Part shown: positions 5,841 through 36,750 of the stretch, piece by piece
Layout: each line of letters begins with the position of its first letter
Position numbering within the stretch: the first letter of the stretch is position 1
Origin: a virus
DNA: 64,000 nucleotides
IMG/VR virus record: IMGVR_UViG_3300042893_001481
Strand: one strand, 5' to 3'
The notes under the pieces: generated by a model
The model's database searches: none
Seen by the model: only the letters and a program-made list of their open reading frames with translations
Told to the model about the DNA's origin: nothing
Program-made: the position numbers and the translations under genes

Positions 5841-6653
5841 TTGAAAATTTATATTTTAGGTGATTCATTTGCTGATAATTTATTTAAAATTGAAATTGAT
5901 GCCATTACAAATGGTGATAAAAGAGATGGTCCGCTTAGTAAATATGTAAATTTATTAAGAAATAAAAATTTACCTGACCCATTACATTTTGGGGATTATC
6001 TTGAATTGTGGGGACATGAAGTTATTAATTTAGGAAAAGGAGGTTGTTCAAATGATTCAATATTCCATCAATTTACTCAAATTAAAGAACCATTTGATAG
6101 GTTAATAGTAAATTGGACGGGTTTATCTAGATTTGATTGGTATGGAAAAAATTTAGAAGTAAGAACATTTACCGGAGGAATACCACCCAACACAAAATTA
6201 ACAACAACAGATGAATTGTTAATTGAACAAGGTTTAAATAGACATGAAAGTGTAATTAACAGAAATAAAACAATTGATTTTATCTCATATTTTTTAAGAA
6301 TATACGAAAAACAAAAACCAATAATTTGGGCACCGTTTTCTGATGTTTCTAAATTAATTGAAAATATAAAAGGATTTATTTGGGACATTGATGAACCTGT
6401 TTTTAAAACGATTATACCTGAATATGATAAATTAGAAATTCGTGGTGAAACAAATGGAAAAATAGAGGATAGACATTATGGTAGATATGGAAATTTTTAC
6501 ACGGCATTATTATTTGATACTATTTTAGAACACACTAATGATATTGAACATGATGGTTACTACATAAAAGATTTAGATTTAATTTCAAAAATTAAGGAAA
6601 GAATAACCACCTCACATCATAATATAATTGAATTGAAAACAAATATTATATGA
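5841..6653 (+). CDS. SGNH/GDSL-like hydrolase or acyltransferase
   Basis: ILGDSF, GKGGCSN, DRHYG; TTG start. Confidence 0.7.
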   Translation: MKIYILGDSFADNLFKIEIDAITNGDKRDGPLSKYVNLLRNKNLPDPLHFGDYLELWGHEVINLGKGGCSNDSIFHQFTQIKEPFDRLIVNWTGLSRFDWYGKNLEVRTFTGGIPPNTKLTTTDELLIEQGLNRHESVINRNKTIDFISYFLRIYEKQKPIIWAPFSDVSKLIENIKGFIWDIDEPVFKTIIPEYDKLEIRGETNGKIEDRHYGRYGNFYTALLFDTILEHTNDIEHDGYYIKDLDLISKIKERITTSHHNIIELKTNII

Positions 6654-7474
6654 GAATATATGTTTTAGGAGATTCCTTTAGTGATAATATATTTACTGAG
6701 GCCATTAATCGTTTAGATAATGATATTGAAGCTAGTGATGGAATTTATAGATATGTTAAATTATTAAGAAAAAACAACATTAAAGACCCCCTGCATTGGA
6801 CTGACTATCTTAAATCTTGGGGACATGAAATTATCAACGTAGCTCAAAACGGATGTTCAAATTATTCTATATTCAATCAATTCCCTAAGATTGATTCAAA
6901 TTATAATGAAAACGATAGAATCATTTTAAATTGGACTGGTTTAAACCGATTCAGTTGGATTGGAAAAAATGGTAATAATATGATAATTACCGGAGGGAGT
7001 CAACCTGATTACAATACCAATATTAAAACTAAAATTCTTTGTGACCAAACAGTGTATAGAATGGAAAGTGTGGACAATCCAAATGGATATTTAAGGCGTG
7101 AGACTGTTCCATTTATGAATTATTTAATGGGATTACACGATAAATATAAACCTATTATGTGGGCACCAATTGCACAACACAATAAAATTTTTAAAAAAGA
7201 AAAAGGTTTTATTTGGGAAATTGATAATAATTTTTACAAAGATATTATACCAGAACATAATATTTTAACCATAGAAAATGAAACTAATGGAAAAGTTTTG
7301 GATCACCATTATGGTAGATATGGTAATTTTTACATGGCGTTAGTTTTTAACACTATATTAAAATATACGGAAAATGTAAATCACGAAGGGTTTTATTTAA
7401 AAGATTCTGATTTAATTGAAACAATTTTTGAAAGTATAATACAGAATAAACATGACCTTATAAGTTTATATTAG
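6650..7474 (+). CDS. SGNH/GDSL-like protein, tandem paralog of 5841-6653
   Basis: VLGDSF, AQNGCSN, DHHYGRYGNFY shared with the previous gene. Confidence 0.7.
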   Translation: MRIYVLGDSFSDNIFTEAINRLDNDIEASDGIYRYVKLLRKNNIKDPLHWTDYLKSWGHEIINVAQNGCSNYSIFNQFPKIDSNYNENDRIILNWTGLNRFSWIGKNGNNMIITGGSQPDYNTNIKTKILCDQTVYRMESVDNPNGYLRRETVPFMNYLMGLHDKYKPIMWAPIAQHNKIFKKEKGFIWEIDNNFYKDIIPEHNILTIENETNGKVLDHHYGRYGNFYMALVFNTILKYTENVNHEGFYLKDSDLIETIFESIIQNKHDLISLY

Positions 7475-8271
7475 AAATACCCAAAACAAAAAGTCGGATG
7501 TTCTTTATGGTCAAATTCATTCAGCATTTGATAATCAGGATATTTTTTTATAATCCATTTATTAAAATCACCATTAAAATCTGTATTTAATAACTCTAAA
7601 GATTTTTCACTGAGATATTCAGGTAAGTATTTTTCTAAAAAAGAATAATATGTTTTTGGTGTTGGGTGGTGAAAGGAAAAATTATCAAACTCGTTTATGG
7701 ATTCTTTTACATCTAACATATTTTGTATGTTAATAAGATATGATTTTAACTGATCATTAATACCATAAACTTCAGCATCGTTAATATAGTGTTTATAATC
7801 TAAAGATGAAATGATTTTATGTTCAATCCCCTTTGCAGTTAATAAATCTTTAATTATTTTAATTGAGATAAATGAATCAAAAATAGAATATGATTTTTTA
7901 TTGTGTTTCTTGAAAAAATTAATAGTTTCAATTAATTCTGGTGTGTCAAATCTACTCGGTTCATATAATTCAATGTCTCCTCTACTATATATACAATCTT
8001 CATCTATGTTAATACAATCATTATATTTTGTTATAGGAAAACTCACTCTACCCATACCACTTATACCAATCATCACTACATCAGTATCCTTATTGAAATT
8101 ATAAAAAACGTCACTTTCAATAAATCTTTGCATTATCAATGTGTTTGATGAACCTGGCATTGCCAAATTGTAATATTCATCAAATTGAATGCCAATTAAA
8201 TCGGCCCAAGTAGGACAGTTCCAATCTTTTGTAAAACTACAACCAAATGAAAAGAATCTTTTTTTAGTCAT
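7471..8271 (-). CDS. SGNH-like protein
   Basis: SFGCSFT, NLAMPGSSN, HHPTP. Confidence 0.65.
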   Translation of the reverse strand: MTKKRFFSFGCSFTKDWNCPTWADLIGIQFDEYYNLAMPGSSNTLIMQRFIESDVFYNFNKDTDVVMIGISGMGRVSFPITKYNDCINIDEDCIYSRGDIELYEPSRFDTPELIETINFFKKHNKKSYSIFDSFISIKIIKDLLTAKGIEHKIISSLDYKHYINDAEVYGINDQLKSYLINIQNMLDVKESINEFDNFSFHHPTPKTYYSFLEKYLPEYLSEKSLELLNTDFNGDFNKWIIKKYPDYQMLNEFDHKEHPTFCFGYF

Positions 8272-9167: not shown

Positions 9168-9707
9168 TTATACGTAATATAATTCAGGGTATTCGACAAT
9201 TACATGAATACCACCTTCACTATATGCATTTTTATATATTGTTTCTACGTTATCATATTTCAATAAATCATGAAATTGAATATTAGGACATAGAGATTTA
9301 AATTCTTCTAAATAATTACCTCTGTGTTGATGTCCAGGGTCTAATGGTTTATCTGAACCTTTACCTAAACGAATAATCATGTTAGGTTGCCATTTACCTT
9401 GACTCATTAATTTGATTTTATCTACGTGATTAACCAATTGATTAGTTGCACATATTAAAAAATCCCATCTTGGATAAAATGTAACTACAAATTGTCCAGC
9501 CATTGCCATACCTAATGACATACCCATTTGGGATTCTTCCATTACAGGAACTTCTATTAATTTATCTTTAGGAATTTCACCAATGGTTGTACTCATTGGA
9601 TTACCGTGCCAAATGATTTGTTGACCAATAAAGACAGTATCAGGTTGTTGACCAAGATATGTCATCGAATTAGTTAGTGCGTCTTTATATGAGGTTGTTT
9701 GTACCAT
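9168..9707 (-). CDS. TPP-dependent enzyme beta subunit (pyruvate dehydrogenase E1-beta/transketolase pyrimidine-binding domain only)
   Basis: VFIGQ, IEVPVMEESQMGMSLGMAMAG, NQLVNH, PGHQH; 179 aa with no C-terminal domain. Confidence 0.8.
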   Translation of the reverse strand: MVQTTSYKDALTNSMTYLGQQPDTVFIGQQIIWHGNPMSTTIGEIPKDKLIEVPVMEESQMGMSLGMAMAGQFVVTFYPRWDFLICATNQLVNHVDKIKLMSQGKWQPNMIIRLGKGSDKPLDPGHQHRGNYLEEFKSLCPNIQFHDLLKYDNVETIYKNAYSEGGIHVIVEYPELYYV

Positions 9708-10677
9708 TATTTGTTTTTTTTTCTATTTTTTTAGTTTTAGGGTTAAATGTAACACGGTCTTCATACACGTTGTCAACAATTTTATCATAATCCACATATT
9801 CAATGTTTTTACCTAACATATCACCGTAATCAACATCGTTAGATTCTATTTTTTTAATTATATTATCTGCGATTATTCTGTGACATTGTTTTGATGGGTG
9901 GTGGTCTTTAGGGGTATCATCAAAATATTCATCATCACTATTAATGTGTAAGAATCTATTTTCATTCATTAATTCTCTAATACAACTATATTTTTTACCA
10001 TTAAAATCAAAACCAATACTTCTTTTTGATAACCATTCATCATTTTGAATTAAAGGTAGATATTCGGATTCCCAATTCAATATAATAGTTTTAATACCTT
10101 TAGATTCGTAAAATTGTAAATTTTGTTTTAAAATACCAATCCATCTTTTCATATGTTCATCATACCATTGATCAAAAGTACATTTTTTCTGATGTGCAAG
10201 ATATTTGTAAAATTTATCATGAGTGTCATTTGAATATGTTCTAAACTCTAATAATTCATATTCATTTCCATCATATGGTGATTGGTAAACGTAGTAATGT
10301 GTATTTCTTTGAGGTTGGGATGTTTGAAATACCACATATTCAACCTCATCAAACGAATGTTTAAAGGTGTAAAATCCGGTATTAGGTTCTGATAAACCAT
10401 GTACACATCTTAAGTAATCAAGAGATGTTTGTTCAGAACCACCGTTTTGTATCATCGAAACTTCAAAAGTATCAAAGTGATTAGCAACTAATCTCGGATA
10501 GTATAATGTCTTTCTAAACGAATTGTGTGAATCGGTTACTAAATTTGAATTATAGGCGTCTGGCGGTGGTTCCTTTAATGTTGGTAGATTTGAGTAATAA
10601 TATAATCCTTGTCCCCACGTGAAAGAACAGCCAGCAAATACCATTCCTTTGTAAACCTTATCTGATTTTGTTTTCAT
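9685..10677 (-). CDS. SGNH-like protein
   Basis: FAGCSFTWGQG, NGGS, DHHPS..CH..IA. Confidence 0.65.
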   Translation of the reverse strand: MKTKSDKVYKGMVFAGCSFTWGQGLYYYSNLPTLKEPPPDAYNSNLVTDSHNSFRKTLYYPRLVANHFDTFEVSMIQNGGSEQTSLDYLRCVHGLSEPNTGFYTFKHSFDEVEYVVFQTSQPQRNTHYYVYQSPYDGNEYELLEFRTYSNDTHDKFYKYLAHQKKCTFDQWYDEHMKRWIGILKQNLQFYESKGIKTIILNWESEYLPLIQNDEWLSKRSIGFDFNGKKYSCIRELMNENRFLHINSDDEYFDDTPKDHHPSKQCHRIIADNIIKKIESNDVDYGDMLGKNIEYVDYDKIVDNVYEDRVTFNPKTKKIEKKTNNGTNNLI

Positions 10678-15147: not shown

Positions 15148-17829
15148 TTAAATTAAATTTCTTTTTATAGGGATAGTTTTTTCTAATATATCCTCAATTA
15201 ATTTTTTATTTTCAACCTCTTCCTTGTTTATGGGTTCAAGTTTCATTTCTTCATGTCTTCGTAATTGTTTTTCATAAAAATCATCTTCAAAATCTTCATT
15301 TACCCTTCTAACACCAGTTTGAAATTCGTAATCATAAAGACCTGATAATTTTTTAACAAAATCCTTATCAGCAGTATCATGAGTTAATTTTTTTGCCAAT
15401 AAATTATTTTTAATAAATCTTTCTTTGTTGTTTTTATAAAACTCAATAAAGAAATCTTTATTTTCATGTATTCTTTTTATCTCTTTAACAAATTTAACTA
15501 ACCTGTCAGAATGGTTTAGTTCTAAATCATAACTGTGATCAATCACATCATCAAAGAAATCAAACCCATATCTTTTTCTAACCGCTTTAATATGTTTTGG
15601 TGATGCTAATATTAAAGGAAATTGATAAGTTACGAAAGGTTTAAATGATTTTTCCGAAATGTGTATTGTGTTAGAACTATATTCAGATTCGGTTACAATA
15701 TTAAAATACGATTCCATATAAGTTGGTTCAGTATATGTGTCCCCCCAATAAACACCATCAGGATTTTCTCTATTATCAAACCAATCCTTATCTTCTTCAT
15801 ACATACATTTTTTCATGTCAACACTATGAAGATATTGAATTTCTGGTAGTAATTCTTTTAAATCCCAAACATCAAAAATATCCCTATACCAATTTACTAT
15901 TTCAAAATTGAATGCTTCATATCCACTAACTAATGACCAATCAACATCATCTAAAATACCTTCTTTTTTTAATAGTGCCAACAATCCGTATCTATGTGGT
16001 CTAACTCTTCTATTATGACATACAAACATTTTACCAACCTTATCTTCTTTGTACCTTAAATTGGGCATACAATGAGTCATTGCTATGTAGATATGTGTAC
16101 TTACTTTAGAGGTTGCAAAAACATTTATATCACTGTTTAATTTTTCTTTATAACTTGGTAAATCAATATTATTGTTTACCATATAAATTTGTTTCCCATT
16201 TATCCCATTTAACTTTAACCAATAATGTAATGCTTTAAATGAATGATAATGTTCATACTCTTGTTCATTACCAAATATTACATAAAAATTTGGATTTCTT
16301 TTCAGACAATCAATAACCTCTTGCGACATTGGTGAATTGTTTTCTGAAATTCTTATAAAAGTTTGACCTGGGGTGTGAGTTATAAAAAAGTAAAACTTTT
16401 TATTTGGATGGTTGTCCACATCACGTAAAGGAAATCTCCTAATATATTGTTCTGGAAAACCCAAAGACCTGACAAAAGAATCCCTTTCTTGTAAAAAGCT
16501 TTCATAAAAAATATCTCTACAATTCATTTGAATAGGTTCTTGTTTCTCCTCATCCCATGTGTCGTATACTAAATTCAAATAAACATTTGATGGAACTTTT
16601 GTTTGACTTAGTTTAAGGAAAAAATCGTGGTCATATTGATTTGTGTAATTAGTCAAATATTCTTGATTTTTTATAAATCTTTCTTTATTTGATTTATAAA
16701 AATTAATATAATAATCTTTATTGTTATTTATATTTTTAACCTGTTCAAAAAACGCCATCAATCTATCTCTATCGTTTTCTATATCATCATAACTGTGGTC
16801 TAAAATGTCATCAAAGAAATCTAAACCAGGGTATGCATTTCTGAAATATTTAATGTGATGATACGACCCTAAAATAAGAGGGAATTGATAATAGAAAAAT
16901 GGTTTAAAAGATTTCTCAGTTATATGAATATCGTCACCAATAAAATTAGTTTCGGTTGTTATGTTAAAGTATGAATTTTCAAAAGTCTTAGGTTCGTTTG
17001 GTAAGTCCTGAGCGTTTCTATTATCTAACCCCCCATACTCTAATTCATAATTACCTTTTTTAATTTCAAGAGATGTAAAATAAGCAATTTCGTTATTTAA
17101 ATTTAATACATCATCTAAACTAAAGATTTCTTTAAAAAGATATTTTCTATCGTTGAAATCCCAACCACACACTAACGACCAATTTGTGTCATCTAAAATG
17201 TTGTATTTTTTTAGTAAACATAAAATTGCATACCTATGAATTCTTGGGGAACGATTCATACATAGAAAAAACGAACCAGGTTCTTTATCCTCCACAAAAT
17301 CAATATTCAAATTCATCTTTAATGCGGTAGCCATTGAACGAGTTGCGTGAACATTAATCTGTGAATTTAATTCAATTTTATGTTCAGGTAGTTTTTCACC
17401 ATTATGTATAAACCAAACTTTTTTTGGATTTAGATTTAAAGATTCAACAATCCTATCCAATCTTTCTAATGCTTGTTTTTTTTCAAATTCACATTCGTTC
17501 ATTATTATTAAAAACAGATTGTCATATTTTTTAACTTTTTCAATAACGTCTAAATCAACTGGTAAAATACCATCAGCAAAAAACCTATTATTATAACAAT
17601 TGATATTCCATACATGATAGAAAAAAACTTCCTCAGGATATTTTTCAACATCCTCAATTCTTCTGTTGTTAATCTTAACATCAGCAAAAACCTTCATTGG
17701 GTTTGTAGAAAGGCGCCAAGTGATACCTTCAATATCATCTTGATGATCATAAGTCTTTAACCTATTAGGTTTAGGGACGTTGTTTTCTTCATCCCAAACA
17801 TCATAAACAAAATTTAAAATACAATCCAT
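15148..17829 (-). CDS. Large protein with two tandem glycosyltransferase-like domains
   Basis: Internal duplication: LN.VYD.WDEE, NR..R.HRY, SYFNI.TE, I(T/S)EKSFKPF..YQFPLIL and FDD..DHSYD each occur twice. The TE...TEK motif is GT10-like. Start taken at MDCIL. Confidence 0.55.
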   Translation of the reverse strand: MDCILNFVYDVWDEENNVPKPNRLKTYDHQDDIEGITWRLSTNPMKVFADVKINNRRIEDVEKYPEEVFFYHVWNINCYNNRFFADGILPVDLDVIEKVKKYDNLFLIIMNECEFEKKQALERLDRIVESLNLNPKKVWFIHNGEKLPEHKIELNSQINVHATRSMATALKMNLNIDFVEDKEPGSFFLCMNRSPRIHRYAILCLLKKYNILDDTNWSLVCGWDFNDRKYLFKEIFSLDDVLNLNNEIAYFTSLEIKKGNYELEYGGLDNRNAQDLPNEPKTFENSYFNITTETNFIGDDIHITEKSFKPFFYYQFPLILGSYHHIKYFRNAYPGLDFFDDILDHSYDDIENDRDRLMAFFEQVKNINNNKDYYINFYKSNKERFIKNQEYLTNYTNQYDHDFFLKLSQTKVPSNVYLNLVYDTWDEEKQEPIQMNCRDIFYESFLQERDSFVRSLGFPEQYIRRFPLRDVDNHPNKKFYFFITHTPGQTFIRISENNSPMSQEVIDCLKRNPNFYVIFGNEQEYEHYHSFKALHYWLKLNGINGKQIYMVNNNIDLPSYKEKLNSDINVFATSKVSTHIYIAMTHCMPNLRYKEDKVGKMFVCHNRRVRPHRYGLLALLKKEGILDDVDWSLVSGYEAFNFEIVNWYRDIFDVWDLKELLPEIQYLHSVDMKKCMYEEDKDWFDNRENPDGVYWGDTYTEPTYMESYFNIVTESEYSSNTIHISEKSFKPFVTYQFPLILASPKHIKAVRKRYGFDFFDDVIDHSYDLELNHSDRLVKFVKEIKRIHENKDFFIEFYKNNKERFIKNNLLAKKLTHDTADKDFVKKLSGLYDYEFQTGVRRVNEDFEDDFYEKQLRRHEEMKLEPINKEEVENKKLIEDILEKTIPIKRNLI

Positions 17830-25210: not shown

Positions 25211-25242
25211 TTTGATTTTTTAGATTTTTTTACCTATATTAT
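25211..25242 (+). promoter_or_regulatory. Bacteroidota-type sigma70-like promoter
   Basis: TTTG (25211)-N20-TATATTAT (25235) just upstream of cysC; same spacing at other sites. Confidence 0.5.
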
Positions 25243-25248
25243 AGTATT

Positions 25249-26060: not shown

Positions 26061-26269
26061 TGATAGTAGAACGTAAGAGACACATAGCAAAAACCATCTC
26101 ATATCGTATTGTAAGTACGTTAATTGGTTTCCTATTAATGTGGTTGATAAGTGGATCAATTAAAGTCGGTGCTGCGTTTGGTGTTGCGGAATTGATTTAT
26201 AAACCGATACAATACTATTTTCATGAGAGAATTTGGTATAAATGGATCAAGTACGGACTTAAAAAATAA
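26060..26269 (+). CDS. DUF2061-like small membrane protein
   Basis: RHIAKTISYRI...YYFHERIW. Confidence 0.75.
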   Translation: MIVERKRHIAKTISYRIVSTLIGFLLMWLISGSIKVGAAFGVAELIYKPIQYYFHERIWYKWIKYGLKK

Positions 26270-26274
26270 AATAT

Positions 26275-26838
26275 ATGATTGGTAATATAGATATATTTGA
26301 AAACTTCCTGTCACCTGAAGAGTGTGATTCCATTTTAAATAAATGCAAACAAGAATTAATATTATCAGGTGCGGAGGTATATACTGGTGATTCTAATACC
26401 ATACCTACTAAAAAAAATAGAAAATCATCAGTTGGTTGGATATCCGATTTAGGATTTTTAAATGAGAGATTAACAAATAAATTACGAGAAACTTTCAATA
26501 TAAATGGTATGGAAGTTACGGGATTGGGAGATTACCAATTTACCGAATATAAAGAAGGTGAATATTTTGACTGGCACACCGATAGTACTGATGTTATATA
26601 TAGAGATAGATTTACATCAATAGTAATTCAGTTAAATGACACATACAAAGGTGGTGTATTAGAAATTAAAAATATTAAAGGTGAAATAGTACCAGTAGAA
26701 AATAAAATTGGAACGTTGTATATTTTTAATTCAAGGTTACTTCATAGAGTAGTTCCAGTAATTGAGGGTGTACGTTATTCGTTAGTTAATTGGATATCAT
26801 TGGTTAAAACCGATTTTAAAAAACAAAATTTAATATGA
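26275..26838 (+). CDS. 2OG-Fe(II) oxygenase (prolyl 4-hydroxylase-like)
   Basis: WHTD, GGVL, LHRVVPV..G.RYSLV.W. Confidence 0.9.
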   Translation: MIGNIDIFENFLSPEECDSILNKCKQELILSGAEVYTGDSNTIPTKKNRKSSVGWISDLGFLNERLTNKLRETFNINGMEVTGLGDYQFTEYKEGEYFDWHTDSTDVIYRDRFTSIVIQLNDTYKGGVLEIKNIKGEIVPVENKIGTLYIFNSRLLHRVVPVIEGVRYSLVNWISLVKTDFKKQNLI

Positions 26839-27452
26839 TAAACGGGTACCACATATTTGATGATATAATTCCAGAATTAAATCAAAATAAATTAGAAGAG
26901 TATGTAAAACTTTCAAATTTAAAGTGGAATTATCAACACAATATTACCGGTCAATATGGAGGAACGGAATCATTAAAATTACCTGCAAATGTTTTAAAAG
27001 GTATTGACATTAATGATAATGATATTGTTAATATTATAAATTCAATAAAATTAAACTTATTGAATAAACTTAATGTTGAATTTCTGAGGGATTATAGATG
27101 TAAGATAAATTGGACTGTACCGATAATTGAAAATTATGATTTTAAAAATTTAATACATGTTGACATGGATGTTAATCATATTGCGATTGTTTACTACATA
27201 AATAATTCCGATGGAAATACTATTTTTTTAAACAATAAAAATGGTATTTCATCAGAATCTCGACAAAGTAATTTTATGAATATTAATATGGATGAATTTG
27301 AGATAGTAAATAGTGTACCCCCCAAAAAAGGAAGAGCAGTCATATTCAATGGTAACATTTATCACTATGGTGAATACCCAACTACAACCGATAGATTCGT
27401 AATTAATTTTGATTTAGTTGGTAAAGATAAGAATAAAAATAATTTATTATAA
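26835..27452 (+). CDS. 2OG-Fe(II) oxygenase-like protein
   Basis: HVD, YYIN.SDG.T, PKKGRAVIFNG..YH, R.VINF. Confidence 0.8.
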   Translation: MINGYHIFDDIIPELNQNKLEEYVKLSNLKWNYQHNITGQYGGTESLKLPANVLKGIDINDNDIVNIINSIKLNLLNKLNVEFLRDYRCKINWTVPIIENYDFKNLIHVDMDVNHIAIVYYINNSDGNTIFLNNKNGISSESRQSNFMNINMDEFEIVNSVPPKKGRAVIFNGNIYHYGEYPTTTDRFVINFDLVGKDKNKNNLL

Positions 27453-27916
27453 TGGAAAAACGAGTTACACTTTTTAAAAATTTTTTATCCGTTGAGGAAT
27501 GTGATACTCTTTTAAACACATATAAAAACGAAACATTTGTGGATAGTGAATTTCTAAATAAAAAATTAAAAAATTATTTAGAAAAAATAAAATTTAATGG
27601 AAGTAGTGTAAGTGTAAATGAAATAAAAATTTACAATATATCTACCGAAAATACAAATGCATCATTTTTAGAAGAACCCAAATATGATATTACATTACTA
27701 ATATCATTAAATTCCGATTTTGAAGGTGGAAGATTTATTTTCTTAAACAAAGATATTGATAAAAATATGCATATGGACAATTCACCAGGAGACATGATAG
27801 TTTTCTTTTCAAACATTAATTATGGAAGTGGTAAAATAATCAATGGTACAAAATATTATTTAAAAATTGGCACTAACAATGTTTTAGATTCACAAATAAC
27901 CAAATCACTTATTTAA
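27452..27916 (+). CDS. Degenerate 2OG-Fe(II) oxygenase-fold protein
   Basis: NFLS.EEC, LNSDFEGGRF, GD...F, G.KY are retained, but HxD and the distal His are absent. Confidence 0.6.
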   Translation: MEKRVTLFKNFLSVEECDTLLNTYKNETFVDSEFLNKKLKNYLEKIKFNGSSVSVNEIKIYNISTENTNASFLEEPKYDITLLISLNSDFEGGRFIFLNKDIDKNMHMDNSPGDMIVFFSNINYGSGKIINGTKYYLKIGTNNVLDSQITKSLI

Positions 27917-27921
27917 TTTTT

Positions 27922-28566
27922 ATGGAAAAAGTAATGTACGATACGAAAACATATCTTTACAGAGATATATTAAATCTTTCAGATTTTAAAGATGAGATTT
28001 TAAAAAAGTGTAATGAAATTATAGAAAGTCTACCAAATGTTACTCAAGATGGTTATGGGTATTTTGAAGAAAGTAAAGATTTAAATTTCATAGGTGAAAT
28101 TGAAATTAAAAATAAATTAGATGAAATTTTAAAGTTTGGAATTCAATCATGTATTGATGTGTACCAACTTGAGTATAATTTACCATTTAATAAAATTAGT
28201 ACAGATTGTTGGGTAAATGTGGTTAGAGCTAAAAATCCTGTACAATTTGATGACATTGAAAGTGAATTACATCAATATCATATACACACTGAGATAAATG
28301 AAAAAAATAAAAAATTCATACCACATTTTACGTGGGTGTATTATATTCAAATGCCCGATAATTTAAAAGATGATGATGGTACTTTATATATTAAAGGTGA
28401 AAATGATATTGAATATTTTATTTTACCAAAAGAAGGTGATTTTATAATAATGAAATCAGATTTACCTCACTCACCACAACATGCGTTAGACTCAACAAAA
28501 GATAGAATGGTATTGGCTGGAAATGTTGGATTTGAATTTATTAAAAAACAAAAATCATTGATATAA
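27922..28566 (+). CDS. Putative 2OG-Fe(II) oxygenase
   Basis: WVN, HIH, WVYY, PKEGD, PH, R.VLAGN. Confidence 0.7.
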   Translation: MEKVMYDTKTYLYRDILNLSDFKDEILKKCNEIIESLPNVTQDGYGYFEESKDLNFIGEIEIKNKLDEILKFGIQSCIDVYQLEYNLPFNKISTDCWVNVVRAKNPVQFDDIESELHQYHIHTEINEKNKKFIPHFTWVYYIQMPDNLKDDDGTLYIKGENDIEYFILPKEGDFIIMKSDLPHSPQHALDSTKDRMVLAGNVGFEFIKKQKSLI

Positions 28567-28567
28567 T

Positions 28568-29797
28568 ATGGAATATAGTTTAGATAAAATTGTTATAGTT
28601 GGGGGAGGTACGGCGGGATGGTTATCCGCATTGTACTTAAATAGTAAATTTAAAAATTCAAAAATAACATTAATTGAGAGTGATGAAATTGGAATATTAG
28701 GGGCAGGAGAAGGAACAACTGGCAATATAGTAAAATTTTTAAATAATTTAGGAATTTCGCCTGATGATATGATTAATAACTGTGAGGCAACATTTAAAAC
28801 AGGTATCGATTTTGAAAATTGGACAAAGCCCGGTTCGATATTTACTCACCCAATAGATTATAAACCAAAGGGTGATGGATATGCATATCATTTTAATGCT
28901 AGGTTATTAGTAAAATATCTTAAATCATTAGCAATAGAACGAGGTGTTAATTGGATTGAAGGAATTGTAACTGAACCAATTTTAAATGATACGAATCAAA
29001 TTATTGGACTTAAAACAATTGATACAATGATTGATGCTAGCTTTGTTATTGATTGTAGTGGATTTAAACGATTATTGATTGGTAATCATTATAAATCAAA
29101 TTGGATTTCATATGAAGAACATCTAAAAGTAAATACAGCAATTCCATTTTTTTTACCAACCAATAGTATAAACATCCGTACAACAACCAAATCTATTGCA
29201 ATGAAATATGGATGGATGTGGCAAATCCCATTACAAAGTAGAAGGGGATGTGGGTATATATTCGATTCAACTGAAATTAGTGAGGATGAAGCTAAAAAAG
29301 AAATAATTGAATTCTTAGGTGCCGATGTTGATATTCAGTTTAATAAACCAATTAAATTTAAACCGGGTTCATATGAAAATGTATGGATTGAAAATTGTTT
29401 AGCAATCGGTTTAAGTGGAGGGTTTTTAGAACCATTAGAGGCAACATCAATAATGACTACAATTTTACAATTAGAGGCATTTTATGATACTACTTTAAAA
29501 AAAATGACATTGAAAAAATATAATAAATTTGTAAATACAATCAATACTCAAAATATGATTTTTATTTATTATCATTATTTAACAAATAGAACCGATAGTA
29601 CTTTTTGGAAAAAAGTTTCAGCTGCCGCAGCTGACTTACCATATCCGTTGGATTTATTAATAGATTCATCATATAATTTTAAACCAAAAAAACAATTGGT
29701 CGAATTATTTGAAAAGGACTCAACTATTATATTTGGTTCGTTTTCATATAATAAAATAAATAAAGGTATTAAACAAACCCAACCCCCATTGATATAA
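28568..29797 (+). CDS. Flavin-dependent tryptophan halogenase family protein
   Basis: GGGTAGW, GAGEGT, TFKTGI.F.NW (catalytic Lys region), IDCSGF, GWMWQIP (WxWxIP), GFLEPLEATS. Confidence 0.9.
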   Translation: MEYSLDKIVIVGGGTAGWLSALYLNSKFKNSKITLIESDEIGILGAGEGTTGNIVKFLNNLGISPDDMINNCEATFKTGIDFENWTKPGSIFTHPIDYKPKGDGYAYHFNARLLVKYLKSLAIERGVNWIEGIVTEPILNDTNQIIGLKTIDTMIDASFVIDCSGFKRLLIGNHYKSNWISYEEHLKVNTAIPFFLPTNSINIRTTTKSIAMKYGWMWQIPLQSRRGCGYIFDSTEISEDEAKKEIIEFLGADVDIQFNKPIKFKPGSYENVWIENCLAIGLSGGFLEPLEATSIMTTILQLEAFYDTTLKKMTLKKYNKFVNTINTQNMIFIYYHYLTNRTDSTFWKKVSAAAADLPYPLDLLIDSSYNFKPKKQLVELFEKDSTIIFGSFSYNKINKGIKQTQPPLI

Positions 29798-30526
29798 ATG
29801 TTAATAGAAAACAAATTTTTATTTATTAGTTTACCAAGATGTGCCTCCACATCCTTTTATATTTCCTGTTTAAGAAATGGTTTGGATGTAAAACATGTTG
29901 ACCAAAATTTTGTAAATGGATATAGTAATAGAATTGATTTAAGTTTAGATAATGAATCTCTTGCCGATAGATTGGTACATTTACATGAGACTATATACGA
30001 TTTAAAAAACCATTTTGGGAATGATTATGAGGTAATTACAATAAAAAGAAATAGACATGAAAGATTTATTTCGGTTTGGAAACATTTAATTGATATGATT
30101 TACATGGATTATGGTAAAAAATATGGTGACATATTAAAAGAGTTAAATGAAGAAGATATTTTTTTTTATAAAAATACCGATATTATCAATATTAATGACA
30201 TGTATAAAATGATTGATAAGTTTATAAAAAAAATTGGTTTGAATGAAATATATGATGAATATATACAAAATATGTTTAAAATAACATTTCACCCAACATC
30301 ACATTGGCATAATAATGACTCAAATATAAAATGGTTTGAGTTTGGAAAATTTGATGAATTAGAAGAATGGGTTTCAAATAAAATTGGTAAACCATTTAAA
30401 ATGGAAAAATCAAATGGAAGTCAACATTTCGAGTGCAATTTAAAAATGAATGATAAGTTTGTCACCCATTACAATTCTATTTATGATAGGTATGATATTT
30501 TTAAATCAAACAAAACATTGATATGA
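29798..30526 (+). CDS. Sulfotransferase-like protein
   Basis: FISLPRCASTS (5'-PSB-like), RNRHERFISVW (3'-PB-like). Confidence 0.7.
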   Translation: MLIENKFLFISLPRCASTSFYISCLRNGLDVKHVDQNFVNGYSNRIDLSLDNESLADRLVHLHETIYDLKNHFGNDYEVITIKRNRHERFISVWKHLIDMIYMDYGKKYGDILKELNEEDIFFYKNTDIININDMYKMIDKFIKKIGLNEIYDEYIQNMFKITFHPTSHWHNNDSNIKWFEFGKFDELEEWVSNKIGKPFKMEKSNGSQHFECNLKMNDKFVTHYNSIYDRYDIFKSNKTLI

Positions 30527-30828
30527 TAGATTTTAAAGATATTTATGAATCTTGGAAAAAATCAGGAAACCCCACCGATATTGAAAAGCAACATGCGTTC
30601 GAAAGGTTGTCAATATGTAAGGGTACCACCACCGCACCAAAATGTGAATATTATGTTGAAATTGTTAAGAATAAAAAGTGGTCATCTTTATGTGTAAGTT
30701 GTGGATGTCCCATACCTAAAAAAATATTTACAAATAAAACACCATCCTGTCCAAAAAATAAATGGGACATCATCGACCTTAATTACAACACTAATATTGT
30801 GATAAAAAACAAAAAAACCATTTTATAA
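30523..30828 (+). CDS. Small Cys-rich, probably metal-binding protein
   Basis: RLSIC...C...CVSCGCP...K...CPKNKW. Confidence 0.65.
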   Translation: MIDFKDIYESWKKSGNPTDIEKQHAFERLSICKGTTTAPKCEYYVEIVKNKKWSSLCVSCGCPIPKKIFTNKTPSCPKNKWDIIDLNYNTNIVIKNKKTIL

Positions 30829-30925
30829 CGTATATACATATATATTATAAATAAATTTTTGAAAATGAATATTTATTATTCCCTTTTAAGATATTTATAA
30901 GTATATTTAAAATAAATAAAGATTT

Positions 30926-32428
30926 ATGAAAGCAACAATAATTGGTAGTGATTTACTACAACAAGGTGATTCGGTAAAGATTTTAGAAATAAACACTAAT
31001 ACCACCATATATAACGAAGGGGCTGATTTATTGGATTATGTTGCATTATTTGACATGTTAATCCAAAATAATATTACGGAATTCCACTATATATATACGG
31101 ATTTAGAGGCGTTTTTACCATTAAAATTCCCACATAGATTTGAAGAAATCTTAAAAGAAAAATGTGTTGAAAATGGAATGACATACACACCACATTTAGT
31201 GGCTCAAAATTCTGTAACAGTTCCTTACATTGAGGACGCTGTTAATAAATTTATTCTAAGACAATCTTTTGACACAACCGCTTTGGTGGACGAAACATAT
31301 TGTGCGGATAAGTATGAATTTTTTAATTTAATGAGTGGTTCCACGTTTATTCCAAATACGTACTTTAACACTACCGAATTGTCATTAGATACTTTGTCTG
31401 AATTAAATTTCACAAATGGGTTGGAACCAAACTTAGTAAAAAAACATAGATATCCCTCATATGATGCAAAACAATTACCCGCATTATATTCAATTGAAAA
31501 TCAATTAGATTTTGATACGTTTAAAACAACAATAGATAATACAGAAAATAATTTAATACAGGAATTCATATATGACACACAAAACATTGTTGATGGTAGA
31601 TATTGTGTTATTAGAGGTATCGATATAATATATGGTTCTAATTTAGATGTGATTAATTTAGGTGGGTATAGACAATCTACATTGTTACCATTATCTTTTG
31701 CCACAAATGAATTTAAAACGGACAGTAGAGAATTAAAACAAAAAAGTAGATATAAATATATAACTAAAGCCTTAGGTAAATGGGGTATGGTTGACTATCA
31801 CGTAGAAGACGATAGTAATATTTTAAAATACGATGGATCACTTGCAGACCTTAGTACCATTCAAATTGGTGACTACATGCGTTCAATAGATTTTACCGAT
31901 TATAATGGAAATAAAGCTGGAGAAGCTGATGTTACAAATATGCAAGCATTTGGTTGGGATTGTGATTTAGTACAAGCGAATGCGACATTGACACAATTAA
32001 GTACAACTTTACAAGAAGTTGTCTCCGCCGTTGTTGACACAATTCACATTAGAATTACATTAGATAATGGGTTGAGTTGGGTCGATTCACCTAGTTGTAA
32101 GTACCTTATTGAAGAATCTGGATCAACTGAAACCAGATTTGATAATGTTAATAATTTATATATTGGTGATAAATTAGTGGTTACCGATTCCAACACCAAT
32201 CAATTAACAACGGTAGCAATTACGGGATTGGAAATGGAATATGCTTCTAAAACAATTTATGGTTTAGATTTTGCTCCATCTGATTTGTTCTTAGTTGATG
32301 TTGGAGAAGGATTATATAGTGTAATGCACAACCCGACATGTTGGTGTAGTTATTCATATTGTGGTAATTGGTGTTACGAATCGTGGTGCCCAACTTGTAG
32401 GTGGGGTGGTGGTCCTGCGAAACTTTAA
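30926..32428 (+). CDS. Circularly permuted ATP-grasp + Hint domain + Cys/Trp-rich C-terminal peptide
   Basis: N-terminal GSDLL...ILEINTN, then DKYEF..P.TY, LVKK, LIQEFI. Hint-like aa 292-469 (ILKYDGS...IQIGD.M.S; LYIGDKL; IYGLDF...LFLV; VMHN). Tail PTCWCSYSYCGNWCYESWCPTCRWGGGPAKL. Confidence 0.7.
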   Translation: MKATIIGSDLLQQGDSVKILEINTNTTIYNEGADLLDYVALFDMLIQNNITEFHYIYTDLEAFLPLKFPHRFEEILKEKCVENGMTYTPHLVAQNSVTVPYIEDAVNKFILRQSFDTTALVDETYCADKYEFFNLMSGSTFIPNTYFNTTELSLDTLSELNFTNGLEPNLVKKHRYPSYDAKQLPALYSIENQLDFDTFKTTIDNTENNLIQEFIYDTQNIVDGRYCVIRGIDIIYGSNLDVINLGGYRQSTLLPLSFATNEFKTDSRELKQKSRYKYITKALGKWGMVDYHVEDDSNILKYDGSLADLSTIQIGDYMRSIDFTDYNGNKAGEADVTNMQAFGWDCDLVQANATLTQLSTTLQEVVSAVVDTIHIRITLDNGLSWVDSPSCKYLIEESGSTETRFDNVNNLYIGDKLVVTDSNTNQLTTVAITGLEMEYASKTIYGLDFAPSDLFLVDVGEGLYSVMHNPTCWCSYSYCGNWCYESWCPTCRWGGGPAKL

Positions 32429-32455
32429 AATAAAACAAATTAAATAAAAAATAAC

Positions 32456-32596
32456 ATGGCAAAGAAAGAAAGAGTAGAAAGACCGTTACAAACAATAAAA
32501 ACGAACATAACCCCAATTACAACCGATTTAAAAGTTAAAGTGGCAAATGCCTTCCAATCATTTGTAACGGCAATCAAAGTAAAACACCTTTCATAG
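32456..32596 (+). CDS. 46-aa hypothetical protein
   Basis: Manual translation MAKKERVERPLQTIKTNITPITTDLKVKVANAFQSFVTAIKVKHLS; A-rich leader; fills the gap. Confidence 0.65.
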   Translation: MAKKERVERPLQTIKTNITPITTDLKVKVANAFQSFVTAIKVKHLS

Positions 32597-32604
32597 TATG
32601 TATT

Positions 32605-33426
32605 ATGAAATTAGTTACATTTGGGGATAGTTGGACTGAAGGGGTTGGGGGCAATATTAGTGAGGAATCGGCAACAGATATACCTGAAGAAAAAACAAAC
32701 ATAAGACAAAAATATTGTTGGCCAAAACACTTATCGGAATTACTCACTTGTGAAGTTAAAAATGTTGGGGTCGGATCATTTTCTAACAACTCCATATTCA
32801 ATTCAATTTCTCGTCAATTAAAAAATGGAATCATCACTCAAGATGATTTCGTTGTTATTATGTGGTCATCATCTTTACGGGATTCATTACCTTTTTTCCC
32901 TACTGAAGATGATTTTTTTATTTGGGGTAAACGATATAAAAGTAAAGAACACCTTTTAAAGTATATTTTTGATGGAGTTAATAGTGATAATATAAACTAT
33001 AATAGGGCAGAAAAAAACTTTAGAGATTATTACATTAATAATTTATTTAGTGATACCTACTACGATATAGTAAATCAAAATTACATATTACATCTTCAAT
33101 TTATGTTTAAAGAATTAGGTATTAGATACCTTTTTTGTGATGGATTTGATATAATGATTAATAAAAATATTGATACGTTAGTTGACAAATCCCATTTAAT
33201 TGAGAGTAATAGATATTGGGGTTATAGAGATAAAACTATGGCAAATTTATTAATTAATACTAATAGAAAAGATGTGTGGCAAGATAATAACCATTGGGTT
33301 GATACCACAGCAGGTAAACACCCAAGTAGTAATGGATATAAATTGATTGCTGAGGAATTATATAAATTTATAAATGAGGGTAATTTATTAGTACCCATCA
33401 AACTAAAAAATTCAAATCTATTATGA
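32605..33426 (+). CDS. SGNH-like protein
   Basis: TFGDSWTEG, GSFSN..I, IMWS, KHPS..GY.LIA. Confidence 0.75.
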   Translation: MKLVTFGDSWTEGVGGNISEESATDIPEEKTNIRQKYCWPKHLSELLTCEVKNVGVGSFSNNSIFNSISRQLKNGIITQDDFVVIMWSSSLRDSLPFFPTEDDFFIWGKRYKSKEHLLKYIFDGVNSDNINYNRAEKNFRDYYINNLFSDTYYDIVNQNYILHLQFMFKELGIRYLFCDGFDIMINKNIDTLVDKSHLIESNRYWGYRDKTMANLLINTNRKDVWQDNNHWVDTTAGKHPSSNGYKLIAEELYKFINEGNLLVPIKLKNSNLL

Positions 33427-33989
33427 ATTATACCATAAATAGTAATTTTTGTAATAGTGAAACTGCTAAAGATATCATTGAGTTCTGTATTAAATTTGGT
33501 GAACCGTTTTCATACAACCCGTCAGAACGATGGGATTGTAGACGAATATATGATTCTGATTTTAAAAAGAGAATAATTGATTTATTAATAACCAATTATA
33601 AAAACGGATATTTTAAATTATGGTTTGATTACTCTACCTTTAATTTAAAGAATTTTAATATCAGTCTAACTTCATATTATGATGGTAGATATCTCAATTT
33701 GCATAAAGATAAATCAAGTGAATTAACGACCGTGATTGTCCTTTCAGATAACTTTGAAGGTGGTCAGTTTGCTTTATGTGGTGATAAAAATCCACCTATT
33801 AATTTTGAAACCCTTGAAGGTATAAGTACATTTGACTTAAAATTGGGTGATTTAATTTCATTTAATGGTTCCGAAACCTATCACGGAGTGTTACCGGTAA
33901 CAAATGGAACGAGGTATGCCTTGAATATTTGGATGACAGAAACTGATTTTGATTACCCTAAATTAAAATCTAATAAAACTGTTATATAA
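33423..33989 (+). CDS. 2OG-Fe(II) oxygenase
   Basis: LHKD, FEGG, YHGVLPV..G.RYAL.IW. Confidence 0.85.
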   Translation: MNYTINSNFCNSETAKDIIEFCIKFGEPFSYNPSERWDCRRIYDSDFKKRIIDLLITNYKNGYFKLWFDYSTFNLKNFNISLTSYYDGRYLNLHKDKSSELTTVIVLSDNFEGGQFALCGDKNPPINFETLEGISTFDLKLGDLISFNGSETYHGVLPVTNGTRYALNIWMTETDFDYPKLKSNKTVI

Positions 33990-34023
33990 TGTTAACTAAA
34001 AAAAATAATACAAATAAACTAAT

Positions 34024-34542
34024 ATGAAACTATCAATCGATGATTTAGTTTTTTTAAAATCTGAATTAAATAACACTCGAATAATGAATGAAGAAGATTT
34101 AAGCTATATAAAATCAGCACATCCCCAATTATATCATACCACAAATCCAGAAAAAGCCGATATTCTATCTCTCTTTCCAAATGATAGTTGGGTTTATACT
34201 TTAGAAAATAAAAATTTAAATGAATTTATTTGTAATAAATTTGAAGAACCCATTGATAATTTATACATAATGCATAGATTAATATATGGTGAAAATGGTT
34301 ATGCTAAAAAACATAAAGATAGATTTACAACACATAAGACCGTTAGTATTTTATTGTCATCCGATTTTACAGGTGGTGAAATGTATATAAATGATAAAGA
34401 TCTATCATTGACAAATGAAGGAGATTATATTGTATTCAATGGGGGTAATGAATCCCACGAAGTAAAAAAGATAATTAATGGGGAACGAGATGTATTAATA
34501 ATATGGTTTTCAAAAAAGAAAGCAGAATTTAGTATCATATGA
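34024..34542 (+). CDS. 2OG-Fe(II) oxygenase
   Basis: KHKD, FTGGE, HEV..I..G.R.VLIIW. Confidence 0.85.
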   Translation: MKLSIDDLVFLKSELNNTRIMNEEDLSYIKSAHPQLYHTTNPEKADILSLFPNDSWVYTLENKNLNEFICNKFEEPIDNLYIMHRLIYGENGYAKKHKDRFTTHKTVSILLSSDFTGGEMYINDKDLSLTNEGDYIVFNGGNESHEVKKIINGERDVLIIWFSKKKAEFSII

Positions 34543-35018
34543 AAATATTAATAATAGCATTACCCAGAACCGGCTCAACTTCTCTTTTAAAAAAAATATC
34601 TAAAGATAGAAATCTAAAACCATTCTTTGAACCATTTGATGGGACTGGTAGAGTTATCTATAACAATGAAGATAATTCGGTTGTTAAAACAATTATATCA
34701 CACTACCAAAATAATTTAGAACTTATTAATAACTTTGATGAAATTATACTTCTTAATAGAAAAAATATAAAAGAGTTAATAGAATCTCACTCATATCAAA
34801 CGTATTTTTTAAAAACAGGTTATAATTCTAATAATCCATATGTCTATAAAGAACCACCACAAGAAATAATAAATTTGTGTACGTCTGATATACTAAATTG
34901 GAATGAGGAAATCAACCAGCTTTCAAAAATTACTAAAATACCAATTACATACTATGAAGATATTTTTGATAATAATTCAGCGGATAGGTTACGAATGTCA
35001 ATAACTAATATAATTTAA
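34539..35018 (+). CDS. Sulfotransferase-like P-loop protein
   Basis: IALPRTGSTSL, FEPF, L.RKN, YYED. Confidence 0.7.
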   Translation: MKILIIALPRTGSTSLLKKISKDRNLKPFFEPFDGTGRVIYNNEDNSVVKTIISHYQNNLELINNFDEIILLNRKNIKELIESHSYQTYFLKTGYNSNNPYVYKEPPQEIINLCTSDILNWNEEINQLSKITKIPITYYEDIFDNNSADRLRMSITNII

Positions 35019-36064
35019 TGATAGATTTAAAACAATATACGTGTAGTAATCCATTTACCACTTTAGAAATACATGATAATGTTGGGTTTGTTTGTTGTCC
35101 ATCTTGGTTACCAAATAAAATAGAACTTAATGATACATCTTTAAAAAATGTATATAATAGTGAACCGGTTGTGGATATTAGAAATTCCATTTTAGATGGT
35201 TCATTTAAATATTGTAACAAAGAATTATGTCCACATTTAAGTAGATTGTTAAACTATGGTGTCACCTCTGGCCCTATTCACTTAAAATCAAATTCAAAAT
35301 ATACAACACCAATTATTGAACCAACCACACCGACCACAATTTTAATGAATTTTGATAGGACCTGCAATTATAAATGTCCATCGTGTAGAGTCGACTTAAT
35401 TGTTGAAAGTAGTAAAGGTATAGAACGAATAGAAAAAACAATAGACGAGATTGATACCTATTATTCGGCAAACGTAAAAACTTTATACATTACTGGTACT
35501 GGAGATCCCTTTGTTTCAGTTAGTTTTAGAAATTATTTAAGAAACTTTAATCCAAAAAAATACCCAAAATTAACAAGTATACATTTTCATACAAATGCAT
35601 CAATGTGGACAAAGGAAATGTGGGACAGTATGCCAAATGTTCATAAGTATGTAACAACGTGTGAGATATCAATAGATGCAGGAACACAAAACACCTATGA
35701 AAATAAAACCAGATTAGGTGGTAAGTGGGATACCTTAATAAATAATTTAAAATTTATTTCTACAATAGAAACATTGAAATCAGTAAAAACATCGTTTGTT
35801 GTTCAAGATAGTAACTATATGGAAATGGAAACCTTTTATAATTTAATGTATTCTATTTTTGGAAAAAAGGTAAATGTGTTTTTTGGTAAAATAGTTAATT
35901 GGGGTACATTCTCAGATGGTGAATTTAAATTAAAACAGGTTTGGGATACCAATCACCCTGAGCATGAGTTATTTAAAAAAGAATTTAATAGGATATGGAA
36001 AAACACTAATCTATTTCATAATTTATATGAATTTGTCGACACCACACAAAAAACTTTAATATAA
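35018..36064 (+). CDS. Radical SAM protein with N-terminal SPASM/twitch-like domain
   Basis: C..PF...CCPSW...C....CP N-terminal region; CNYKCPSC; GTGDPF; ISIDA. Confidence 0.9.
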   Translation: MIDLKQYTCSNPFTTLEIHDNVGFVCCPSWLPNKIELNDTSLKNVYNSEPVVDIRNSILDGSFKYCNKELCPHLSRLLNYGVTSGPIHLKSNSKYTTPIIEPTTPTTILMNFDRTCNYKCPSCRVDLIVESSKGIERIEKTIDEIDTYYSANVKTLYITGTGDPFVSVSFRNYLRNFNPKKYPKLTSIHFHTNASMWTKEMWDSMPNVHKYVTTCEISIDAGTQNTYENKTRLGGKWDTLINNLKFISTIETLKSVKTSFVVQDSNYMEMETFYNLMYSIFGKKVNVFFGKIVNWGTFSDGEFKLKQVWDTNHPEHELFKKEFNRIWKNTNLFHNLYEFVDTTQKTLI

Positions 36065-36750
36065 TGTCCAATATAAGAAGTGTGGGATTTATTGAAAAAC
36101 ATTTTGATGAACATTCAGAATTTATTATAAGTAAAATAAATGAATCATCAATATCTTTAAGTAGAATATCAAATAAAGATTTAAATGAATTAATTTATCC
36201 GATTGTACATTTAATTGATTTTGAATTCAACGGAGATTCTAAATTTTTATTGAATAAAACAATAGATGAAATGGATTTGATGTATTCAAATTGGTATAAG
36301 TTGCACGAAAAAATGTTTACAACATTTAATTATGTGGAAAAAAATAATATAATTTTAGACTATAGAAAAAATGGAGTTGGGTATTATTGGGTTGATTTAA
36401 ATTGTTATTATAGTTATGAAATGTTATTTAGATTACATAACTGTGGTAGAGTCAACTCCCATCAAAATCTTTTGGAACTTAGAGAATATGATATAAATGG
36501 ATACAACTATAGTAGGGTTGTTGTTGTCATATGTAACAATGGATTTATAAATCAAATTAAAGGAGATTATAATCTGAAACCTGATTTTATTTATAAAGAT
36601 TATATATATGATTTATTTTTAAATTATAAAGAATTAAAGGGATTTAAAATATTAACTCCAAATAATAATAATTTTACCCATATGGATTTAAATGATACAG
36701 AGTTATCTAATTTAAAAAGAACACGTCCAGAATTCTTTTTCCTAATATAA
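36064..36750 (+). CDS. Hypothetical protein
   Basis: 228-aa ORF coupled to the previous gene (TAATG); contains HNCGR and QIKG..N.KP. Confidence 0.6.
   Translation: MSNIRSVGFIEKHFDEHSEFIISKINESSISLSRISNKDLNELIYPIVHLIDFEFNGDSKFLLNKTIDEMDLMYSNWYKLHEKMFTTFNYVEKNNIILDYRKNGVGYYWVDLNCYYSYEMLFRLHNCGRVNSHQNLLELREYDINGYNYSRVVVVICNNGFINQIKGDYNLKPDFIYKDYIYDLFLNYKELKGFKILTPNNNNFTHMDLNDTELSNLKRTRPEFFFLI

Follow-up and report, generated by a model that had tools for sequence, protein, structure and literature searches.

A shared C-terminal tail on the enzymes of a phage peptide-tailoring cluster and its possible role as a docking tag for an ATP-grasp-Hint precursor

The virus record IMGVR_UViG_3300042893_001481 was analysed as one strand, 5' to 3', of a DNA stretch of 64,000 nucleotides (the window), in which a first-pass annotation had pointed to about 18 unrelated proteins, encoded between positions 5841 and 36750, that share a short C-terminal tag. 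The window is part of a large uncultured T4-like phage. In this phage and in hundreds of its relatives, nearly every peptide-modifying enzyme encoded around a peptide precursor bears a tail close to Lys-x-x-Lys-Ser/Thr-Leu-Ile. The tag is real, is selected on the protein, is confined to the gene cluster, follows the protein family and always occurs together with the precursor, a protein of ~500 residues predicted to combine ATP-grasp (GspS-like) and Hint domains with a Cys-rich core. Our preferred reading, to which we assign a probability of about 0.5, is that the tail is a docking peptide for this acidic precursor. The precursor would then serve as a hub, inverting the leader recognition by RiPP recognition elements (RREs) that is known from ribosomally made peptides with post-translational modifications (RiPPs).

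All 18 C-termini of the first-pass annotation and their coordinates were correct on re-examination, and the codons, the near match LYKVI at 50817 and the junctions (ATGA and TAATG overlaps; gaps of 0, 1, 5, 34 and 97 nt) are as described there. In the core of the cluster (26275-36750), where nearly all open reading frames (ORFs) had been said to be tagged, 13 of the 14 ORFs of at least 60 residues end in [LIV][IL], whereas inside these proteins that dipeptide occupies 3.56% of positions (binomial p 2e-18). The more restrictive ending [STN][LIV][IL] is found in 11 of these 14 (p 3e-21). The tag was also said to be largely absent beyond 37 kb, and it is present in only one of 39 ORFs outside 5841-36100 (Fisher p 2e-10).

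In the outer region 5 of 23 ORFs are tagged (p 9e-4), a count made with ATG-only gene calls that takes in an antisense ORF ending NGSLI (6077-6388, probably spurious) and leaves out the TTG-start ORF 5841-6653, which ends KTNII. The C-termini of the five outer genes originally listed (5841-6653, 9685-10677, 15148-17853, 21659-22414 and 22417-23217) stand; their status as tags is weaker, and the orthologs of 9685-10677 are untagged. The fold labels given to the tagged proteins held in part. Those for 2-oxoglutarate (2OG) oxygenases, halogenase and radical S-adenosylmethionine (SAM) enzyme were supported by Pfam, the last below Pfam's own cut-off. The SGNH label is weak, and the sulfotransferase label is weak but plausible for 29798-30526 and 34539-35018. 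The glycosyltransferase label did not hold for tagged genes: the glycosyltransferase at 36764-39520 is untagged, and no tagged gene was shown to be one. The genes are as follows.

5841-6653, plus strand: outer tagged ORF with a TTG start, tail KTNII; no relatives among the loci.
9685-10677, minus strand: outer ORF, tail TNNLI, tag doubtful; orthologs end DKLR, EKNG or ENNG.
15148-17853, minus strand: ORF of 901 residues, tail KRNLI; the ortholog in related locus L002 (45% identity) ends ISGII.
21659-23217, plus strand: two DUF6071-like paralogs, tails KNNII and HNEII.
23396-26269, plus strand: untagged supply genes, namely a carbamoyltransferase, an adenosine 5'-phosphosulfate (APS) kinase in two ORFs and DUF2061 (Pfam and PHROGs; families tagged 0/7, 0/26, 0/31 and 0/35).
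26275-26838, plus strand: 2OG-Fe(II) oxygenase, tail KQNLI (PF13640, 1.6e-13); family 0, tagged 139/139.
26835-27452, plus strand: 2OG-like (DUF6445-like) protein, tail KNNLL (weak PF13640/PF20043); family 19, tagged 11/11.
27452-27916, plus strand: protein of 154 residues grouping with a 2OG family by BLAST clustering, tail TKSLI; orthologs end SKSLI and TKSII.
27922-28566, plus strand: 2OG oxygenase of family 6, tail QKSLI (weak PF13640).
28568-29797, plus strand: flavin-dependent Trp-halogenase homolog, tail QPPLI (KQKSLI in L001 and L002; PF04820, 3.6e-93); family tagged 41/44.
29798-30526, plus strand: sulfotransferase-like protein of family 1, tail NKTLI (PDB profile, heparan sulfate 2-O-sulfotransferase, E 1e-3); tagged 69/71.
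30523-30828, plus strand: Cys-rich zinc-ribbon-like protein of 101 residues (family 3), tail KKTIL on a 20-residue extension; family tagged 58/67.
30926-32428, plus strand: untagged candidate hub and precursor, with predicted GspS-like ATP-grasp domain (residues 1-285), Hint domain (288-472) and Cys/Trp-rich core (472-500), end PAKL (model confidence 89); tagged 0/68.
32456-32596, plus strand: untagged small basic ORF of 46 residues, end IKVKHLS; follows the precursor nearly everywhere.
32605-33426, plus strand: SGNH/DUF6071-like hydrolase, tail NSNLL (weak Pfam); family 4, tagged 55/63, usual tail S-Y-L-[LI].
33423-33989, plus strand: 2OG oxygenase, tail NKTVI (PF13640, 4.9e-10); the L001 ortholog ends NKTLL.
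34024-34542, plus strand: 2OG oxygenase, tail EFSII (PF13640, 3.2e-6).
34539-35018, plus strand: sulfotransferase-like protein of family 5, tail ITNII, with ALPRTGST resembling a phosphosulfate-binding (PSB) loop (NodH/CurM, E 0.012-0.11); tagged 61/62.
35018-36064, plus strand: radical SAM enzyme, tail QKTLI (sub-threshold Pfam match to PF04055, 7.5e-6); family tagged 19/26.
36064-36750, plus strand: protein of 228 residues, tail FFFLI (family 14), with no PDB or Pfam match; tagged 9/14.

Within the supply genes, the APS kinase appears to be split between the overlapping ORFs 25249-25683 and 25680-26060, which are followed, within 25249-26269, by a DUF2061 membrane protein with 78-96% identity among relatives. 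This arrangement fits a supply of 3'-phosphoadenosine 5'-phosphosulfate (PAPS) for the two sulfotransferase-like families.

Among 637 unique tails, Lys is found at position -7 in 48% and at -4 in 53%, Thr or Ser at -3 in 59%, Leu at -2 in 78% and Ile at -1 in 74%. The consensus K-x-x-K-[S/T/N]-[L/I]-[I/L]-COOH is strongly supported as a short linear motif (SLiM) selected on the protein. It is carried by at least 15 enzyme families of different folds, among them two 2OG families (139/139 and 53/60), two sulfotransferase-like families (69/71 and 61/62), the zinc-ribbon (58/67), SGNH (55/63), halogenase (41/44) and radical SAM (19/26) families and several of unknown function. The precursor (0/68), both APS kinase halves, DUF2061, the carbamoyltransferase and a glycosyltransferase-FkbM fusion are never tagged. 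The split between families is sharp: ~90-100% of the likely peptide-acting enzymes bear the tag, and none of the precursor and cofactor-supply (PAPS, carbamoyl donor) genes does.

The motif persists where its residues do not. Close relatives differ in sequence and keep the pattern (QPPLI and KQKSLI; NSNLL and NLYLI), and 112 of the 120 best database homologs of the family 6 2OG enzyme (27922-28566) are tagged, the remaining eight ending in near variants. Each family also keeps a flavour of its own, with K-E-L-I in the halogenase, S-Y-L-[LI] in SGNH, N-[ST]-L-I in the zinc-ribbon, K-S-L-I in family 6 and K-T-L-I in family 1; such differences might tune affinity or the sequence in which the enzymes act. 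In the zinc-ribbon protein, the copy from the cluster ends in a 20-residue extension that carries the tag, whereas a 77-residue paralog from another part of these genomes terminates at CPKGKWPA and lacks both, which identifies the tag as an add-on. It can also be gained or lost, since the radical SAM enzyme is tagged in the window and its L003 ortholog (44% identity) is not (NHFFN), and since the halogenase is tagged in the window and the longer version of the L005 group is mostly untagged.

That the signal resides in the protein and not in the DNA or the translation context, as first proposed, is strongly supported by tests of codons, junctions and divergence. In 79 tagged genes from eight loci, synonymous usage at tag positions -2, -3 and -4 equals the background of the same genes (chi-square p 0.25-0.84). 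Enrichment is limited to ATA at position -1, where the ATGA overlap dictates it, and TAA, TGA and TAG are all in use as the following stop. Across 88 loci, 96% of tagged-family members whose next gene overlaps end in the tag, as do 97% of those followed by a gap of more than 40 nt and 97% of those that no gene follows; untagged families at overlapping junctions have it in 0 of 89. Family 1 orthologs with only 28-31% identity retain T-L-I (NKTLI, SSTLI, ANTLI, NNTLI, NVTLI). The signal tracks the protein family and not the gene junction. A nucleic-acid signal for the downstream gene (its start context, a promoter or a coupling element) that is translated as L-I by coincidence would account for the many ATGA or TAATG junctions and the over-used ATA, but it is effectively refuted by the background codons at -2 to -4, by the anchoring of the motif to the stop codon and not to the next ATG, and by the contrast between long gaps in tagged families and overlaps in untagged ones. 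Several of the tagged genes are 2OG paralogs, as common ancestry would have it; the spread over at least 15 families of different folds, the binomial probability of 2e-18 and replication in more than 85 loci leave chance or paralogy with practically no probability.

A comparison of C-termini inside and outside the island had been proposed with the initial observation, and in two complete relatives it confined the tag to the cluster. Endings in [LIV][IL] are found in 8 of 11 cluster genes of G003 (288,673 bp), compared with 14 of 359 in the rest of the genome (3.9%, which equals background; p 6e-9), and in 9 of 25 cluster genes of G005 (237,307 bp), against 15 of 249 elsewhere (p 5e-5). Neither of the two sequence-based outcomes set beforehand as speaking against the proposal was seen: the frequency is not equal genome-wide, and the start context of the downstream gene does not explain the tag.

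The tag and the precursor occur together. In the set made up of the window and 42 halogenase loci, the precursor is encoded by all 8 tag-bearing loci and by none of the 35 others. A search with the precursor gave 228 viral relatives; 79 further precursor loci were kept, each with runs of tagged genes (699 of 1382 ORFs tagged). An exhaustive HMMER search of metagenomes yielded 626 representative precursor clusters, and no relatives were found in 185,579 prokaryotic species genomes. In distant precursor clades (25-34% identity), with quite different Cys-rich cores, neighbouring genes still end in K-K-[ST]-L-I, including those for SET-domain and B12-radical-SAM enzymes. In the analysed regions of the cultured phages HTVC008M and P-SSM2, the homologous 2OG/halogenase clusters have neither tag nor precursor. 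A small basic ORF (29-50 residues, with a conserved ...IKxKHL end and no Pfam match) directly follows the precursor in nearly all of 86 loci, and the precursor and this ORF are the only cluster-specific untagged partners in nearly every cluster.

A structural model of the precursor built on a 123-sequence alignment reached a predicted local distance difference test (pLDDT) score of 89; an 8-sequence version (pLDDT 46) was unusable. Residues 288-472 adopt a Hint fold (Z 16; root-mean-square deviation ~2 Å to BIL2, hedgehog and mini-inteins), whose terminal H468 and N469 are at least 90% conserved. Residues 1-285 match YjfC/YgiC/GspS in Foldseek with E-values of 1.4e-5 (7uk6), 6.3e-5 (7uk8) and 1.1e-4 (2io8) and probability 1.0; by fold similarity the N-terminal domain is predicted to be a GspS-like ATP-grasp fold, with low template-modelling (TM) scores. 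This ligase domain contains 16 of the 19 nearly invariant residues of the precursor, and E21-x-N23, K173, R230 and others are conserved at 85-90% or above among the 123 sequences. Residues 472-500 form a disordered Cys/Trp-rich core. The protein is strongly acidic (pI 4.4, net charge -7.6 per 100 residues), and the tagged tails carry +1.6 over their last 10 residues.

In 90 of 132 precursor representatives (P0001-P0150) at least one of the last three residues is Lys, against 15% expected (p 7e-43); the corresponding window coordinates are 32420-32428. Judged from this pattern, the terminal Lys is a candidate amine for a ligase acting in cis. Short precursor fragments (P0088, P0096) come from ~1-kb contigs. 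In two-Hint forms of the precursor (L005:6758-8677, L016:2076-4001, L018:6805-8688, L022:6764-8689) the Cys/Trp-rich core lies between the Hint domains; the first Hint ends in HN, and the second starts CF.G and ends in VHN followed by K. Lys stands immediately after the last HN in 36 of 36 such forms, whose layout resembles the split-intein arrangement for making cyclic peptides.

In the docking model, the enzymes that tailor a Cys-rich peptide, encoded by the phage and released by the Hint domain, would have received the tag at their C-terminus. The tail, basic and with an aliphatic end, would bind a conserved site on the strongly acidic 'leader protein' formed by the GspS-like ATP-grasp and Hint domains, the ATP-grasp fold family being one in which the C-terminal carboxylate of a short peptide is held. 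Small single-domain enzymes of unrelated folds could thereby be held beside the core peptide and would need no leader-recognition domain of their own. We arrive at docking because the peptide-acting enzymes are tagged and the cofactor makers are not, because the tag is constant where the core varies, and because the predicted precursor fold is one that grips peptide C-termini. The first-pass annotation had left a common scaffold, a PDZ-like receptor and a degron side by side. A common scaffold, namely the ATP-grasp-Hint protein, is favoured by perfect co-occurrence and charge complementarity, and a phage-encoded PDZ reader was not found: no PDZ_2 or PDZ_6 domain (PF13180, PF17820) turned up in five related phage genomes, of which four are 95% complete or more. 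We infer both the role of the precursor as reader and the non-covalent binding.

Several observations weigh against this assignment. Co-occurrence does not tell the precursor apart from the small ORF behind it, nor from a host factor. The tag shows no covariation with precursor clade that would single out one receptor. Foldseek hits with TM-scores of just 0.24-0.34 are the basis of the ATP-grasp assignment, and a PDB sequence profile found the Hint domain only. Finally, the tag flavour proper to each family (K-E-L-I, S-Y-L-L, N-[ST]-L-I) has no explanation in the docking model.

The same precursor fold allows the tag to be read as a substrate. The GspS-like ligase domain, in cis with the core, would activate the Ile or Leu carboxylate of the tail and join it to a polyamine or to the core's conserved terminal Lys. 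Its neighbours in structure, the peptide-spermidine ligases YjfC and YgiC and the glutathionylspermidine synthetase GspS, do join a peptide C-terminal carboxylate to an amine, according to PMC12568646, which cites Pederick 2023. The near-invariant E-x-N and other ligase-domain residues suggest an active enzyme, and the frequent Lys near the precursor end (90/132) is in keeping with this chemistry. Each precursor has a single such Lys for at least 10 enzymes, though, covalent capture would waste catalysts, and the core's own C-terminus is an equally good candidate carboxylate; we regard this reading as rather unlikely. As for the specific proposal that the tag is the acyl donor for the precursor's own ligase, with the enzymes tethered covalently, perhaps transiently, to their ribosomal substrate until Hint release, we hold it to be improbable.

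Two further explanations look beyond the precursor. ClpX signals of the MuA type combine a basic stretch, a small residue and an aliphatic C-terminus (RRKKAI), and the tag resembles them. It could be a degron or remodelling signal of this kind (ClpX C-motif-2-like), read by a host AAA+ machine or protease and limiting the lifetime of reactive enzymes. The absence of PDZ domains and of an S41 tail-specific protease (PF03572) from the same five related genomes leaves room for a host reader. Such a signal would leave unexplained the strict link to the precursor and the exemption of supply enzymes in the same operon; the precursor-less 2OG/halogenase clusters of cultured pelagiphage and cyanophage are untagged, and ClpP is encoded in one of the five relatives. 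We consider a degron unlikely. Our estimate is no higher for an address to another partner or place, which might be the small basic ORF, an oligomeric scaffold, the interior of the capsid or a site at the membrane. In its favour, the tag is accompanied by the small ORF as faithfully as by the precursor, and terminal targeting peptides for shells or compartments are a known principle. The small ORF is strongly basic, like the tag itself; the tagged proteins are soluble, with a hydrophobic 19-residue window in 7 of 637; and no shell gene is among the cluster genes annotated by Pfam and PHROGs, a set beside which unannotated genes remain. Docking on the precursor is the reading we retain.

The 'island' is a portion of a large uncultured T4-like phage, a phage peptide-tailoring cluster and not a cellular island. 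The window is ~30% GC with densely packed genes. We base the assignment on the following: the T4 major capsid family Gp23 is encoded on each of five large contigs from relatives (237-316 kb), phage baseplate and tail-fibre PHROGs are matched by the collagen/Peptidase_S74 protein at 42383-44179, and the closest cultured relative of the window halogenase is that of Pelagibacter phage HTVC008M (40% identity). A giant-virus origin, prompted by the name of L001, was rejected on the Gp23 proteins of the five relatives, the tail and baseplate PHROGs matched by the fibre protein and the prokaryotic-style gene overlaps. L001 (IMGVR_UViG_GVMAG-M-3300009164-63_000001) is a 10-kb contig filed under a giant-virus metagenome-assembled genome, probably through a binning error, with ~80-85% protein identity to the window cluster. 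A megablast search of the window against the phage collection gave no match, nor did a tblastn search with the PcfJ-like protein. Upstream of the island (65-5409), three radical SAM paralogs, one of them truncated by the window edge, alternate with two LamG-like proteins, all untagged. In the region 46709-46852 / 47460-48080, a 47-residue ORF is 77% identical to the C-terminus of the adjoining GT2 glycosyltransferase and looks like a duplicated gene fragment. In one precursor relative (L147, a contig of ena:ERZ508656) the gene gives its database protein only with TAG read as Gln, a hint that some relatives recode this stop codon.

Should the tail be a docking tag for the folded leader protein of the precursor, RiPP logic would be inverted, with the receptor on the substrate and a label of 4-7 residues turning any enzyme into a client. 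The shuffling by phages of small hydroxylases, halogenases, sulfotransferases, methyltransferases and radical SAM enzymes into a single pathway would then be explained, and the tail would provide a portable tag for bringing enzymes to a peptide scaffold. Whatever the mechanism, the tag flags the member genes of a widespread, otherwise unannotated viral pathway, represented by the 626 precursor clusters.

Tandem dioxygenase/halogenase clusters with the same enzyme families have been described in T4-like cyanophages (Iyer et al. 2010, PMC2938197); that paper makes no mention of the tag, and our literature search found no description of it. RiPP leader-RRE recognition and the docking of SLiMs on β-hairpins in polyketide and nonribosomal peptide synthases (PKS/NRPS) perform the task proposed here, bringing several tailoring enzymes to one peptide substrate. 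The polarity differs, in that the phage enzymes carry the short motif and the proposed folded receptor is on the precursor. As for a PqqD-like RRE on the tagged proteins, Pfam scans gave catalytic domains only, no dedicated RRE search having been made.

Other parallels are found among terminal peptides. In the cytosolic iron-sulfur assembly (CIA) targeting complex, a C-terminal tripeptide [LIM]-[DES]-[WF]-COO- is necessary and sufficient for docking clients on one machine, according to Marquez et al. (PMC10245660), and there too unrelated proteins share one extreme C-terminal peptide. The CIA system is eukaryotic, with an acidic/aromatic motif and Fe-S delivery, whereas the phage tag is basic/aliphatic and its clients are enzymes, not substrates. 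Peroxisomal targeting signal 1 (PTS1; S-K-L-COOH, read by Pex5) and class I PDZ ligands have, like the phage tag, a free C-terminus with an aliphatic last residue, a feature that holds for 637 of 637 tails by selection of the set. The class I PDZ pattern x-[S/T]-x-hydrophobic-COOH has its Ser/Thr at -3 in 59% of these tails, with Lys, Asn and others in the rest. In the PTS1 pattern [SAC]-[KRH]-[LM]-COOH position -2 is basic; it is Leu or Ile in the phage tag, which falls outside that pattern and belongs to a system whose bacterial host has no peroxisomes. Sliding-clamp tails (T4 gp45, β clamp, PCNA) bring many unrelated enzymes to one hub by a short terminal peptide, in T4-like phages too, but with a different consensus; the tagged clients work on something other than DNA, and their substrate is part of the candidate hub. 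Cargo-loading peptides of encapsulins and encapsulation peptides of microcompartments likewise give the enzymes of one operon a common terminal targeting peptide; the phage tag is shorter, shows no evidence of an amphipathic helix and has no shell gene beside it among the annotated ones. The tag has the defining features of none of the CIA tripeptide, PTS1, PDZ ligands, clamp tails and encapsulin peptides, and in principle it resembles them all as a C-terminal address tag.

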